Origin: a virus
Taxonomy: Duplodnaviria > Caudoviricetes
Reading direction: 5' to 3' (one strand)
DNA length: 64,000 nt
IMG/VR virus record: IMGVR_UViG_2061766007_001346
Span: 96,001-160,000 of that record
How positions within the stretch are numbered: the stretch's first letter is position 1; every line of letters begins with the position of its first letter. Made by a program: the position numbers and the translations under genes. Shown here one piece after another: positions 15,404 to 42,868 of this stretch. A model generated the notes under the pieces. The model did no database searches, was not told the DNA's origin, and saw only the letters and a program-made list of their open reading frames with translations.

Positions 15404-15452
15404 ATATGATCGAAACATTAACTCATTTATTAACATCTAATTTAAAAGCCTT

Positions 15453-15845
15453 ATGGAAATTTTCGCAAAGGAAGGCTGGGGTATCCTCGCCGTGTCTGCC
15501 AAACTCAACATCAACGACCAGATCATTCTGTGTCAGGTTCTTGACAATCTTGATCGTTTCGACGGTTTCGTCGAGAAGATCGACGCGTGGGACAAAGAGG
15601 CAGAATGTCACACGCTCCAGGAGCTTAATGAAGAGACTGGCTGTTGGGAGCCGTCTCAGTGGGCCAAGGACAATCCTCGTCCTGGTGACCCGATGGAAGA
15701 AGCTCACAAGATGGGCTTCGATCCAATGGAAGAGCAGCGGAAACTGCGCAAGTTCTGCCGTAAGCTCTGCCATATCAAGCTTGGTGAGAGCAACATCTTC
15801 GACGATGAGGCCCAAGAGGCCAAAGTCGAGAAGGTCGCAAAGTAA
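15453..15845 (+). CDS. Hypothetical protein
   Basis: ORF with strong codon bias. Confidence 0.75.
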   Translation: MEIFAKEGWGILAVSAKLNINDQIILCQVLDNLDRFDGFVEKIDAWDKEAECHTLQELNEETGCWEPSQWAKDNPRPGDPMEEAHKMGFDPMEEQRKLRKFCRKLCHIKLGESNIFDDEAQEAKVEKVAK

Positions 15846-15851
15846 CAATCT

Positions 15852-16076
15852 ATGGCACACGTTGTCACACTCTCAGAACAGCTGGAAACCGTCACACAGG
15901 CAATCCGGCCTCTCATCGATCGCCAAGAAGGCGATGACCCCGAAGGAGCAAACGGCCAGTGCAAAGCTGCAATAGCCGAATGCGAAGCTCTCGTAGCCAT
16001 GCTCAACGAAGTGAAATCACAGATTGAGTATGAGATTCTTGAACAGTGCCCAACTCCAGATCCTTACTGGGATTAG
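15852..16076 (+). CDS. Hypothetical protein
   Basis: ORF, tight packing. Confidence 0.65.
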   Translation: MAHVVTLSEQLETVTQAIRPLIDRQEGDDPEGANGQCKAAIAECEALVAMLNEVKSQIEYEILEQCPTPDPYWD

Positions 16077-16079
16077 CCT

Positions 16080-16415
16080 ATGTTACCAACATCAACTCAA
16101 CACAAGTCACCCGAGCTTCTCGTGAGTCTGCGTGTCTGCGAGACAAGCGCCGATAAAGTGAGAAATGCTCGCACCGTTCCTATGTACGAACTCACCATCA
16201 AGGATATGGGTGGTGAGTTTCCGCGTGCAGGCATCAAGGTGTGGTTGGACGGCAAAGTCATCAACGACTACGAGCTGTCTATCTTCGCCTCGCCTGGTAA
16301 AACTATGACGGTCGACAACTTGGTAGATCTTGCCAAGCGACTGGTTCGTGAGTTTAAAGCCGATCCTGCCAATCTTGACAGATATCAGGACTGGCAAGAA
16401 CGTTACATTCCTTAG
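16080..16415 (+). CDS. Hypothetical protein
   Basis: ORF, tight packing. Confidence 0.7.
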   Translation: MLPTSTQHKSPELLVSLRVCETSADKVRNARTVPMYELTIKDMGGEFPRAGIKVWLDGKVINDYELSIFASPGKTMTVDNLVDLAKRLVREFKADPANLDRYQDWQERYIP

Positions 16416-16539
16416 TATTAAGAGCACGTACACAACAGCTCCTCTATAAATGGGGCGCCTTCGCGGTGGGGCGATATACGAACCGACGCACCTGTGCGTT
16501 TAAAACAGGATATGTCAAACACTAATAACTAATTGTTCT

Positions 16540-17088
16540 ATGGCAAAGAACATTGAAGAGGTCGTGAAAGAGGCCTCTAAGGATGTCATTTTCGACTTCA
16601 AGCAGGTTGGGGAGAAACCTGAGGAATTCTCCGAGTGGCTCGAATGTGGCGAGAAGGGTATTCCCTTCGAGTTCTTCGATGGCGAGATCATCACGCTGCC
16701 GCCCTTCGACAAGATCCGGATCTGGGGTCGTCGTGAGAAGATTGGGAAGAAGACCTTCCCGATTCTCTACACTGCGATCGAGTCCGATCGTCAGGGTGCG
16801 ATCGAGATGCCTCTCTCTATCCTGAGACGCATGCCTGCCCTCAAAGATGAGATTTCCAAGCTTATGGAGGGCAATGTGCTGGGAGCACCGCTTCTGTCCA
16901 AGATGTCCGACATCAAGCGTCTGGCCAAACTCTCTCAGCTTGCTGGCGAGGGCATGATCCGCGTCACTGACGCTCCGTTCCACACCAACGACTTCGACCA
17001 GAATGGCAAGGTCATCCGTGACAGTGCCGAGAAGCCTGAGTCGGAACGTCGTCCGCTGATGTGTCACCGGTTCAACCTCGCTTCCTAG
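16540..17088 (+). CDS. Highly expressed hypothetical protein, paralog of 17198-17866
   Basis: Strong C/T-ending codon bias; shared MAKN, FDF, LSxLxR and RLAKL motifs. Confidence 0.8.
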   Translation: MAKNIEEVVKEASKDVIFDFKQVGEKPEEFSEWLECGEKGIPFEFFDGEIITLPPFDKIRIWGRREKIGKKTFPILYTAIESDRQGAIEMPLSILRRMPALKDEISKLMEGNVLGAPLLSKMSDIKRLAKLSQLAGEGMIRVTDAPFHTNDFDQNGKVIRDSAEKPESERRPLMCHRFNLAS

Positions 17089-17108
17089 TCACCACCAACT
17101 CTCGAGTT

Positions 17109-17140
17109 AAGCCCCGTCAAAAACGGGGCTTTTCTTTTTC
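17109..17140 (+). terminator. Intrinsic terminator
   Basis: AAGCCCCGT-CAAAA-ACGGGGCTT followed by TTCTTTT. Confidence 0.8.
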
Positions 17141-17197
17141 GTTTGGGAACTAAGGCATAAAATAAATCCGAAAGCAAATAACAAACTCCTTATAAGT

Positions 17198-17866
17198 ATG
17201 GCAAAAAACGTTACTATCAGCGGCGCCATTCCTGAGATGTATCAGGAGGCACAGCGCCCCTCGGAGTCTTTCGACTTCGACGAATTGAAAGGCGTAGGTG
17301 AGCCTTTCGGTGGATTCCTCACTCAGCAGGGTGACATCTGGCAGTTTGCTTCTCTCGAAGCGTATAAGACTCGTCCGGAACTCCGTCGCAAGCAGCGTGT
17401 CCAGCGTGACCTGCGTACTGGCGAGAAGCCTCGCTATGCGTTCTTCGTTCTGGCCACGCGTACCCGCGGTGGTGTCACCACTAACGAGTGGTTCTCTCTG
17501 AGCTTCCTCAGCCGCACCGATTCCGACCAGCGTCCTGTCAACGAGAGCTGGTACAAGGCCGGTGGCCACGAAGCCCGTCTGGCGAAACTCTGCGAAATGG
17601 GTGCGATCAAGGTCCTCGACGACCTGAAGATTCGCGTTCCTGTCTTCCAGGGTGGCCGTCCCAACCGCGTTCCGACGCTCGATCCTATCACCAAGGAACA
17701 GCTCGTCGACCAGTACGGCACCGCCGTCACTCACGTCGAGACGAGAGAGCAAGATGCGCATCATGTCACTCCGGTCGGAGGCGTAGTCGCAGAACTCGCC
17801 GCTGCCGCACCGGCTGACAATGCCGCTCCGGTCGAGGCCGCGGCTCCCGCCGCTCCGCAGGCGTAA
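17198..17866 (+). CDS. Highly expressed hypothetical protein with Ala/Pro tail
   Basis: Extreme codon bias; paralog of 16540-17088. Confidence 0.8.
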   Translation: MAKNVTISGAIPEMYQEAQRPSESFDFDELKGVGEPFGGFLTQQGDIWQFASLEAYKTRPELRRKQRVQRDLRTGEKPRYAFFVLATRTRGGVTTNEWFSLSFLSRTDSDQRPVNESWYKAGGHEARLAKLCEMGAIKVLDDLKIRVPVFQGGRPNRVPTLDPITKEQLVDQYGTAVTHVETREQDAHHVTPVGGVVAELAAAAPADNAAPVEAAAPAAPQA

Positions 17867-39925: not shown

Positions 39926-40000
39926 GCCGGATTAGCTCAGCGGCAGAGCGGGGGCTTTGTAAGCCTCAGGTCGAGATCTCAGAATTCTCATCCGGCTCCA
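39926..40000 (+). tRNA. tRNA-Thr(TGT) with atypical T-arm
   Basis: Perfect acceptor stem plus CCA; T-loop CTCAGAA lacks TTC. Confidence 0.8.
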
Positions 40001-40106
40001 CTTTATTATGGCGGTTGTAGTTATGGATTTTTCCAAAAACTTCCTAACCGTTTGGTTATTCACTATACACAGTATCCACAGTACTGTTTAAAATCTCTTT
40101 AACACA

Positions 40107-41183
40107 ATGGGTAACAAATTAATTGTTTACACTTCGAATCTCGGATTTACTCCGAAGACTCTTGCGGACGTTGTTGCATTCGCGAAAAAGAATTGCAAGT
40201 TCCGCATCGCTGAATGTGGTCTTAACGACTATCTCGCTTCTGTGAAGGCTGGTGACAACCTCATCACTAAGAAGGGAAATAGCATCTTCGTTATCCGGAC
40301 CTTCGATAAGTCCATTGAGGACCTGTCCGGTGAAGACCGCGCTTACATCGACGATCTCGCTCGTAACTACGATGTTAAGAAAGTTAACATCACGAGCGTC
40401 GCCAATCGTATCAAATTTGAGACGTGGTGCCGTGAGGCTCGGCCCCTTCTCAATTCCGAATCTGCCTCAACCCCTAAAACAACGAGTATGAACTCCATCA
40501 AGAATTTTGGCGAGCGCCTCAAAGCCAACCTGATCCCCACCGAGGCAAAGGATGTCCGTATTGCTATGGACGGTAACATTTGTGTTGCAACCTCTAACGG
40601 TTACGTAACCATCGACGAGAACTTCCACCTCACGTCCTATCCGGACGAGATGGTGATCAACCTCCCGGCTTACACCATTCCGAAGCCTGTCGAGCAGCTG
40701 AAGGTTGGCGATATCATCGCCCGTGAGAAGAGCTACGCGAAGGTGAAGGCCATCAAGGAAGGTCGCATCACTGTCGTTGGTTATACCGGTGCTGGTTCCA
40801 ACGTGTATCCGATCAAGGACTTCTTCCTCGGCCAGACCACTGTCCGTGTCGTGGTTTCCCTCGCTGGTAACCTCGGCGGCCAGATGAATCCGCTGATGCT
40901 TCTTGCCCTCTCCGACAAGAAGGACAACGACAGCCTGCTTCCCCTGATGCTGCTGTCCCAGAACGGCGGTGCCCTTCAGGCCAATCCGATGATGATGATG
41001 GCCCTCGCTGGTGGCGACAAGTTCGACATCAAGGACCTTCTCATGTACTCCGCCCTCAGCGGCCAGAACGCCTTCGGTAACCTCTTCGGAGGTCTCGCCG
41101 CCCCTGTCGCCGCTGCTCCGGCTGCTGCTCCTGCAGCTGCACCGGCTGTTGCTCCCGTCGAAACCCCTGAATCTGCTGAATAA
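40107..41183 (+). CDS. Highly expressed protein with Met-rich MNPLML/MMMM motifs and Ala/Pro tail
   Basis: Strong codon bias; first gene before the GATase/ligase cluster. Confidence 0.8.
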   Translation: MGNKLIVYTSNLGFTPKTLADVVAFAKKNCKFRIAECGLNDYLASVKAGDNLITKKGNSIFVIRTFDKSIEDLSGEDRAYIDDLARNYDVKKVNITSVANRIKFETWCREARPLLNSESASTPKTTSMNSIKNFGERLKANLIPTEAKDVRIAMDGNICVATSNGYVTIDENFHLTSYPDEMVINLPAYTIPKPVEQLKVGDIIAREKSYAKVKAIKEGRITVVGYTGAGSNVYPIKDFFLGQTTVRVVVSLAGNLGGQMNPLMLLALSDKKDNDSLLPLMLLSQNGGALQANPMMMMALAGGDKFDIKDLLMYSALSGQNAFGNLFGGLAAPVAAAPAAAPAAAPAVAPVETPESAE

Positions 41184-41229
41184 TTAACAAAAGAAGTACT
41201 GTGGATACTTCTTTTTAAATTATTAAGAA

Positions 41230-42868
41230 ATGAAGATTTATGTGGTTGGTCCAAGTTGGGATTATGCTAACTGGATCAAAGACGTCGAGTTTGTTCACAA
41301 CATAGAAGACGCACAAATCGTATTATTCACAGGAGGGGCTGATGTAAGCCCCTCCTTATATGGTTGTGCTAAAGACCCAACTGTCTATAGTAGTCCAAGG
41401 AGAGACGAGCAGGAAGTTCTCGCTTTCCGAAAGATGAGACCCGATCAGTTGGCATTTGGTACATGTCGTGGGTTAACGTCGTAGCTCACGTTAAATGGGG
41501 TGAATTGCTGGAAGACTGAGATGTTAATCAGCAGCTAAGCTTGGGCAGTGATGTCCTTGAAAGTTCAGAGACTAGAAACTGAGACTCTTTGAGTTGATAA
41601 TGTTTCCACGAGTACCCCACATTAAAATCATAGATCTTTATGGCTAATGAAATTAAACTAAACTTTATGAGCTACTGCTCGTATTTCGAAGCAAATGGCG
41701 ATATTCATGTTCCTCTTGGATCACATGCGTGTTTTGCAAACGCTATTAATCGAAAAACGATCAGAAAAGAATCTTATATAATCTATCTTTTTAAGGATCT
41801 GAAAGTTGCAAAAAAACATCAGAGTAATTTCTGTCCTTTAACAAAAGAAGAATTAATCTATCATATTAAACAAGCTAGAAGAATATTCAAATTTAACTAT
41901 AATGTTGAAGAAGAGCCGGAAGTACGTAGTGGGGTTGGAGTGTGTCCAGCGTTTAAAGTTACGTTTGACGTTGACGCCAATCATTTCTATCATAGGTATC
42001 TCTTAACTTGGTTAAGATATGCTTATGAGTTTCCGTACAATATGATTCTTCTAGAAGCGTTTCGTCTAAAGAAGTACGCTATTCCAAAGGAAACTCTTCC
42101 TAATCTATTTGTTCTTATAACAAATAGTCTCAAGGACTCCTATTATAGCGATGGCCATAGTATTGGTTGCTCATACGGCAAACACGATATGCTGAAAGAG
42201 GTAACTCTTAAAAAGAACATATCGGAACTCGCTAAACAGAATTCTAACTATGGTTGTTTGAATCAAATATATCCTAGAACAAAAAATAAGGATATTACAA
42301 AACTCACTCGGATAGATCTATCTTATCTGGATGTTGATCAATGGCTTCCTCTGGAAACTTTTGACAAACGTGTTGAGAAATATGTCAAAAATTATAAGAT
42401 TCTAAAAGGTACTAAGTTTTAATGAAGAGATAGTCCGAACTGGGCAGAATTGAATGTTCAGAAGTAGAGGATAAAGAGCCCCTACGATAACAAAATGTAC
42501 AATTCCTATGTGTACTGAATGGTGGTTTGCTTGTTCAAGATTGTGATAATCATGCTGGATGTAATCATGGAATTACTAACGGCAGAGAAACCTTTACAAT
42601 TACTTCTCTTCATCATCAAATGATTTATCCGTTTAATTTGAACAAACGTGATTATGATATTCTATATTGGTCTACCATAAAGCGTTGTTCTTATTATCAC
42701 GGAGACAAAATTAATCCTGAGCGTATTATTCGTGAACCAGAAATAGCTGTTTTTCATAAAGAAGGATTGCCTGTATGCCTTGGTGTACAGGGTCATCCTG
42801 AGATGATGAACTATGGCGAATTGCACGATATGTTAAACGACCTGATTTTGAAATATGCAGTACAGTAG
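41230..42868 (+). CDS. Class I GATase / peptidase C26-like, intron-split (exons 41230-41473, 42498-42868; 204 aa)
   Basis: Splicing restores GTCRG-T|TA-QFLCVLNGG; also FTGGADV, HHQ and GVQGHPE. Confidence 0.9.
41474..42497 (+). mobile_element. Group I intron (IA-like, with P7.1/7.2 insert) carrying an ORF in P8
   Basis: P1 CGUGGGU/GCUCACG with U-G at the splice site; GAAUUGCUGGAA, AAUCAGCAG, UCAGAGACUA, AAGAGAUAGUCC; terminal G 42497; P8 CAUUAAAA/UUUUAAUG encloses the ORF. Confidence 0.92.
41640..42422 (+). CDS. Intron-encoded protein, paralog of 42855-43601; no homing endonuclease motif seen
   Basis: Shared FxxYC, AC[FY], NxCxL, FxYNV, YEFPxN, NLF and Y..NY.ILK motifs. Confidence 0.85.
   Translation: MANEIKLNFMSYCSYFEANGDIHVPLGSHACFANAINRKTIRKESYIIYLFKDLKVAKKHQSNFCPLTKEELIYHIKQARRIFKFNYNVEEEPEVRSGVGVCPAFKVTFDVDANHFYHRYLLTWLRYAYEFPYNMILLEAFRLKKYAIPKETLPNLFVLITNSLKDSYYSDGHSIGCSYGKHDMLKEVTLKKNISELAKQNSNYGCLNQIYPRTKNKDITKLTRIDLSYLDVDQWLPLETFDKRVEKYVKNYKILKGTKF

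Follow-up and report, generated by a model that had tools for sequence, protein, structure and literature searches.

The closest described relatives of the arrangement reported here are contacts between the two untranslated regions of a single bacterial mRNA, of which only a handful is known (hbs, icaR and RNAIII), mostly unconserved between close species (PMC7821165). In Bacillus subtilis, a 14-bp pairing between the 5' UTR and the 3' UTR of the hbs mRNA shields the leader of this abundant message from ribonuclease (Braun, Durand and Condon, 2017; PMC5737220). The phage locus studied here resembles hbs in the predicted long-range pairing of both UTRs within one mRNA, and the protective logic that we propose for it is the same; it differs in that the hbs pairing is a linear duplex in a bacterial gene, whereas the phage contact would be made by two hairpin loops. 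Furthermore, the hbs pairing is not conserved in close relatives (PMC7821165), while the phage contact has been maintained, with co-variation of its loops, throughout a deep family. In the icaR mRNA of Staphylococcus aureus, an anti-RBS motif pairs with the ribosome-binding site, blocks translation and triggers cleavage by RNase III (Ruiz de los Mozos, 2013, as reviewed in PMC7821165). The likeness to the phage lies in a 3'UTR-5'UTR contact inside one mRNA, and the difference in the position of the 5' partner, which in the phage lies ~20-60 nt upstream of the start codon and off the start region. Two features of contacts of the hbs and icaR kind are found at the phage locus: both partners lie on the same transcript, as seen in RNA contigs, and relatives carry compensatory changes.

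The geometry of the phage contact has its nearest counterparts among kissing loops. ColE1 RNA I/RNA II-type complexes pair through 7-nt loops in which every base is complementary, on stems of unrelated sequence, and are long familiar from antisense control of plasmids (general kissing-loop literature, e.g. PMC4872101); the rumen clade of the phage family, with TCCACAG and CTGTGGA, matches this description exactly; the ColE1-type partners act in trans, as an antisense RNA and its target from the same DNA, whereas the phage loops lie in cis on one strand, 1.1 kb apart. In the L5-L13 contact of the corrinoid (cobalamin) riboswitch (PMC10327014), a regulatory or terminator hairpin likewise supplies one partner through its loop. 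The riboswitch contact has both partners inside the 5' leader and depends on ligand, whereas the phage partners flank a whole ORF. In plant RNA viruses, kissing loops between the 5' UTR and a 3' CITE close the message and support translation. The plant-virus 3' CITE serves eukaryotic cap-independent delivery of translation factors on RNA genomes; the phage mRNA instead ends at a putative intrinsic terminator. Long-range pairing of 5' and 3' UTRs and kissing loops are both known. Our literature search returned no phage mRNA in which a 5'-UTR hairpin contacts the terminator loop in cis over the length of an ORF, a result that is not proof of novelty.

The window, a stretch of 64,000 nucleotides, comprises bases 96001-160000 of a 177,170-bp phage genome (single contig; 37.6% G+C) that carries ~18 tRNA genes and one tmRNA. 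The genome is a virus record, with bovine rumen and gut as sample sources, and a comparison of six large ORFs of the phage with PHROGs gave almost no matches. Within the window, the gene for P0001, a conserved phage protein of 358 aa (40107-41183, + strand), is bracketed by two small hairpins of the same strand. The 5'-UTR hairpin (40069-40087) has a 6-bp stem (ACAGTA, 40069-40074, with TACTGT, 40082-40087) and a 7-nt loop, TCCACAG (40075-40081); its last base lies 19 nt upstream of the ATG, and its predicted fold has an energy of -5.9 kcal/mol (z -2.4). The terminator-like hairpin (41189-41216) begins 5 nt past the stop codon and has a 10-bp A/U-rich stem (AAAAGAAGTA, 41189-41198, with TACTTCTTTT, 41206-41215), topped by the 7-nt loop CTGTGGA (41199-41205) and followed by a short T run (-7.9 kcal/mol, z -2.6). 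This stem is unusually weak, with G-C at 2 of its 10 pairs, and a consensus terminator scan made no call. The two loops lie within an inverted repeat whose upstream arm, AGTATCCACAGTACT (40071-40085, + strand), and downstream arm, its exact reverse complement (41195-41209, + strand), are 100% complementary. The earlier note on this DNA had described two hairpins with complementary 7-nt loops and 15-nt arms around the gene, and the sequence reads as it was written there; the gene that it called codon-optimized is indeed GC-enriched (53% GC and 64% GC3 vs 36% in the flanks).

The repeat is the sole perfect inverted repeat of at least 15 nt within 2 kb in the whole 177,170-bp genome, and its 15-mer occurs at just these two places within the window. 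The 15-nt repeat alone is nevertheless not significant, because about one third of block-shuffled genomes likewise yield at least one inverted repeat of 15 nt or more; in addition, AGTA/TACT tops both stems, which makes 8 of the 15 repeat positions automatic. A comparison of flanks is more discriminating: when the -90 and +80 flanks of ~247 ORFs are matched against each other, the longest Watson-Crick run has a mode of 6 nt, and this gene, at 15 nt, is the outlier of the genome, the next best values being 11 and 9. The 11-nt match, GTATTGCAAGA, belongs to a gene outside the window (genome 34572-35723, minus strand). An 8-nt TCCACAGA/TCTGTGGA pair at genome 161649/161698 lies within a coding gene and looks like chance. 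The core hexamers are not over-represented genome-wide (23 and 17 copies vs ~21 expected), and the motif changes between phages; we therefore rejected a genome-wide signal such as a promoter, a Chi-like sequence or a restriction site. A MITE-like cassette was rejected on the grounds that the 15-mer is confined to two places in the window and that the gene is conserved and vertically inherited in a deep tree.

A tRNA-like gene (39926-39997, + strand) lies directly upstream. It matches Rfam RF00005 with 48 bits and was not called by ARAGORN, even when the program was given the sub-region; on visual inspection, TTTGTAA is the sequence of its anticodon loop, and the T-arm appears atypical. A search of Rfam over the locus, at E up to 1, gave this tRNA as the only match and no aptamer. 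The tRNA-like gene may serve chiefly to direct processing of the downstream mRNA, and it is probably the processing site that creates the 5' end of that mRNA. Upstream tRNA 3' ends are seen in eight further loci (L001, L002, L005, L006, L022, L030, L031 and L036). In two of these, L001 and L002, the 5' motif begins 2 nt past the tRNA 3' end and would thus sit at the extreme 5' end of the processed mRNA. Between the tRNA-like gene and the kissing hairpin of the window, a first 5'-UTR hairpin, HP1 (40010-40052, + strand), is predicted with -14 kcal/mol (z -2.6); its sequence varies among relatives, and the loci of the rumen clade contain a counterpart in the same upstream place.

Two rumen metatranscriptome studies yielded contigs that start at 40004, 40020 and 40027, a few bases past the tRNA-like gene, at a place where a DNA contig continues upstream; as contigs, they show presence and not transcript share, ends, strand or abundance, and rare forms are dropped from them. 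They contain the 5' hairpin and the 3' hairpin in one piece (40004-40027 through 41475) and then join 41475 directly to 42500, skipping the intron in the next gene. Because they cross this splice junction, they represent true RNA, and for the same reason the intron is spliced in nature. The contigs begin 40-60 nt upstream of the 5' hairpin, and an N4-type hairpin promoter was rejected for this reason. They also continue past the 3' hairpin; read-through transcripts therefore exist in this phage, and not every transcript ends at that hairpin. Across four strains both hairpins are free of sequence differences, whereas the same 1.47 kb holds ~15 differing sites. The region that codes for the Ala/Pro-rich tail of P0001 (41091-41161, GCTGCTCCGGCTGCT repeats) draws many contigs of unrelated origin from metagenomes and metatranscriptomes, visible as spikes in depth and as loose ends; this pile-up is a low-complexity artefact and not a feature of the locus.

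The comparative analysis drew homologous loci and flanks from IMG/VR, JGI/ENA metagenomes and GTDB assemblies (n=58); further IMG/VR scans with L011, L024 and L046 contributed a single extra locus, L051, and the co-variation set left out the closest relatives, P0002 (93% identity) and P0003 (89% identity). A CCACAG-type 5' loop together with a CTGTGG-type terminator loop is retained in 24 non-redundant loci, the deepest branch being L046, at 38% protein identity. In most loci CCACAG lies in the loop of a small hairpin 27-58 nt before the ATG, and CTGTGG occupies the loop of a hairpin, rich in G+C and followed by a T run, 16-41 nt past the stop codon. The stems of these loci are unrelated in sequence, while the loops are conserved. 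Presentation in a loop on both sides is found in most loci, with 7-nt loops in the window and in the rumen clade; in the clade with the CTACAG variant (L001, L002, L024 and L027) the 5' motif lies in no clear hairpin and looks single-stranded.

The differences among the loop pairs are compensatory. L011, which is nested within an otherwise CCACAG/CTGTGG clade, carries CCGTAG/CTACGG, that is four substitutions, with two positions changed on each side, and CTACAG/CTGTAG is found in the four loci just named, which represent one or two clades. Position -1, immediately 5' of the core, is T-A, or A-T in two lineages (L001/L002 and L051), or C-G in two others (L020 and L043); it is also T.G in four lineages and A.C in none, and position +6, 3' of the core, is C-G, A-T or T-A. 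Of the 192 cells at positions -1 to +6, 178 pair; this value was never reached in 20,000 shuffles that exchanged the 3' partners (mean 162, maximum 175), and slid registers gave 57-106. Because a matching core hexamer was the criterion for picking the loci, tests on the core are circular in part, and since the loci are related, the shuffle counts overstate independence. Positions -1 and +6, which played no part in the selection of loci, also covary, the observed value being reached in 36 and 34 of 5000 shuffles, respectively. The count that we regard as firm is two or more independent double changes within the core, plus several at the flanking positions. The earlier note had proposed a search for compensatory loop changes across homologous loci, and had named a lack of conservation in relatives, together with loop mutations of no effect, as what would speak against a contact; the search was run and found such changes, and the complementarity is conserved.

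The distribution of the motif follows a both-or-neither pattern: nine lineages are without it on both sides, and among the loci with both flanks available none has it on one side only. The motif-less clades (L003/L015, L010/L017/L018, L004, L029, L037, L052 and L054) have a plain small 5' hairpin instead, so that the closing device looks to have been replaced by a plain 5' stabilizer. Since several clades do without the motif, the contact is dispensable. The 5' UTRs of L003, L015, L037 and L052 have a minimal hairpin with a tetraloop or similar (CCC-GAAA-GGG, CCC-CGTAA-GGG, GCC-GAAA-GGT, ...GTAA...), and the terminator loops of these four loci are unrelated to their 5' hairpins. The clades that lack the motif, like the frequency of long repeats in shuffled genomes, would suit an explanation by chance, or by shared descent without function, in which the 15-nt match is coincidental and the loop words are independent features of a stabilizer hairpin and a terminator. 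The coordinated double changes in at least two lineages, the co-variation of the two flanking positions and the both-or-neither pattern all contradict it, and loops that are kept while their stems drift are the opposite of what purely structural hairpins display. This explanation is already strongly disfavored, and we regard it as very improbable.

Co-variation alone cannot tell RNA from DNA, because an inverted repeat is also one duplex site in two orientations. The two copies of TCCACAG/CTGTGGA might accordingly be read as double-stranded DNA by a phage or host DNA-binding protein, such as a looping factor, an insulator or a recombinase, and would then change together as the specificity of the protein changes; such a site fits the co-variation and the both-or-neither pattern as well as an RNA contact does. 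A duplex site has no need of hairpins, yet the words always lie in the loops of hairpins with covarying stems. Among the irregular pairs inside the stems that a single transition separates from a standard pair, every one is of the G.U type on the + strand, 4 of them in 5' hairpins and 9 in terminators, and the A.C type is absent; the total of 13 is modest and includes related loci. The two copies often differ at position -1, with T in one and C in the other, which would pair as T.G, in the four lineages mentioned above. The homologous 3' hairpins have strong G+C-rich stems and T runs, and thus the form of ordinary + strand terminators. The core, moreover, is just 6-7 bp long, the rest of the genome shows no enrichment of the motif, and none of ~50 loci has the gene in inverted orientation. 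The G.U pairs without A.C pairs, the + strand terminator and the inclusion of the 5' hairpin in the transcript together favor the view that both hairpins behave as + strand RNA structures, and we consider a DNA site unlikely. An invertible DNA segment, a related candidate, was rejected: the gene has one orientation relative to its neighbors in the ~50 loci, and no recombinase was found among the neighbors scanned. The inspection for DNA inversion suggested in the earlier note likewise gave no strand-switch joints in DNA or RNA contigs, a weak result given that contigs drop rare forms.

Taken as RNA, the loops are predicted to pair well. Loop-loop duplexes range from -11 to -22 kcal/mol, and folding of the whole 1222-nt mRNA gives an MFE structure and a centroid structure that are each closed by the 15-bp 5'-3' helix. 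In most relatives just 7-9 loop bases pair; longer helices occur in the phage of the window and in L006, L022, L023 and L051. The general device would therefore be a kissing contact, and the longer helix of the window a local extension of it. That extension raises an alternative at the level of transcription, in which the 5' hairpin pairs with the nascent terminator, as in attenuation or anti-termination, and sets how much transcription continues into the next gene. The complementarity in the window runs 4 bp into each stem, a 15-bp duplex of -22 kcal/mol would outcompete the two hairpins (-5.9 and -7.9 kcal/mol) and melt the top of the terminator, and read-through RNA exists. Most relatives, on the other hand, pair through their loops only and have long G+C-rich terminator stems, so that pairing would not compete with hairpin formation; a loop contact over 1.1 kb would also be slow relative to termination, as judged from general kinetics.

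The gene that such a switch would control is not a constant of the family either. In the window it encodes a glutamine amidotransferase (GATase) and is split into two exons (41230-41475 and 42500-42868) by a group I intron of 1024 nt (41476-42499) with a 260-aa ORF (41640-42422). GATase follows P0001 in the clade of the window only; where this loop pair is found in other clades, the next gene is a different conserved one. Control of read-through into the GATase/ligase operon, which the earlier note had offered as the purpose of the pairing, is therefore unlikely as a conserved function, and we give a role in transcription little weight overall. What stands of the interpretation in that note is the loop-loop contact that closes the mRNA, which the changes on both sides support.

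We think it likely that the 5'-UTR hairpin and the terminator hairpin form a conserved intramolecular kissing contact, through which the mRNA is probably closed and protected. The complementarity and co-variation of the loops, the + strand character of the hairpins and the inclusion of the 5' hairpin in the transcript are observed; we infer that the loops pair in vivo, and what the pairing does for the message. The loops 5'-UCCACAG-3' and 5'-CUGUGGA-3' would form a long-range kissing complex of 6-9 bp, which in this phage could extend to a 15-bp helix, and the contact would set the 5' UTR, ~20-60 nt before the start codon, beside the terminator hairpin, ~5-30 nt past the stop codon. The likeliest gain from a closed message would be that an mRNA with very high expression is protected. 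If the 5' end of this mRNA stems from tRNA processing, as is probable, it would be without a triphosphate and open to 5'-end-dependent decay; tying this end to the 3' hairpin would hide both ends, by the logic demonstrated in experiments on the hbs mRNA of B. subtilis (PMC5737220). More speculatively, terminating ribosomes may be handed back to the start. A fully protein-free closed-loop mRNA, with the stop codon beside the start, ribosomes re-initiating on the same message and the ends hidden from exonucleases, strikes us as a rather doubtful possibility.

The same contact could in principle have the opposite effect. A kissing complex stacked between its two stems would make a long quasi-continuous helix, which an RNase III-type enzyme might cut, either trimming read-through transcripts or timing the decay of the message. 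Stacking a 6-bp stem, a 7-bp loop helix and a stem of 10-16 bp would give more than 20 pairs in a row. In S. aureus, loop-loop complexes between RNAIII and its targets are cleaved by RNase III. Cleavage of a loop-loop complex is also described for icaR, in the review cited above (PMC7821165). The contigs at the phage locus have neither ends nor joints at the hairpins and give no sign of the processing site that the earlier note had suggested, although contigs cannot show ends, and a device that promotes decay would be odd for a strongly codon-biased gene whose product is presumably abundant. We attach next to no credence to cleavage as the purpose of the contact.

An abundant product is what the composition of the gene leads one to expect. 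The gene is enriched in G+C and in codon usage in nearly all loci, with a median G+C of 0.43 vs 0.34 in the flanks, as would be expected of a very abundant product. Another markedly G+C-rich cluster in the window (15406-17866; genome 111406-113866), with 50-60% G+C vs 36% around it, has no complementarity between 5' and 3' flanks beyond 5-6 nt. P0001 has no family match in Pfam or PHROG; metagenomic contigs, up to ~180 kb in length, encode more than 300 homologues of it. Its distant relatives include a hypothetical protein of the crAss-like phage cr85_1, Gp39 of Bacillus phage G and a protein annotated as 'virion structural protein' in Bacillus phage vB_BceM_WH1; comparable flanking loops are absent around the cr85_1 homologue. 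An AF2 model of mediocre quality (pLDDT 59.6) shows P0001 with an alpha/beta domain at the N terminus, modeled with confidence, then a beta domain in the center that bears a weak likeness to KOW/Tudor barrels, and last a disordered tail, rich in Met and Leu, with Ala/Pro repeats at its end. A Foldseek search of the PDB with this model returned nothing below E 0.005, and a structure search of BFVD returned uncharacterized phage proteins only. It is a reasonable guess that P0001 is an abundant virion or assembly protein.

The loop-pair device belongs to a family of large phages of the cattle and human gut. Judged from its sequences, this is very probably a message whose two ends are in contact, something rarely seen among bacteria and their viruses. 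The contact appears to be maintained by compensatory changes across a deep gut and rumen phage family, with a minimal geometry of 6-9 complementary loop bases. This two-hairpin geometry would make the effect of end-to-end closure on a prokaryotic message directly testable, and it may offer a compact natural part for the building of stable mRNAs. The natural variants CCACAG, CCGTAG and CTACAG, together with the both-or-neither pattern, would serve as ready-made orthogonal pairs. If the protein-free closed loop with re-initiating ribosomes is borne out, these phages would possess a bacterial-virus counterpart of eukaryotic mRNA circularization and of the 3'CITE-5'UTR kissing loops of plant viruses.
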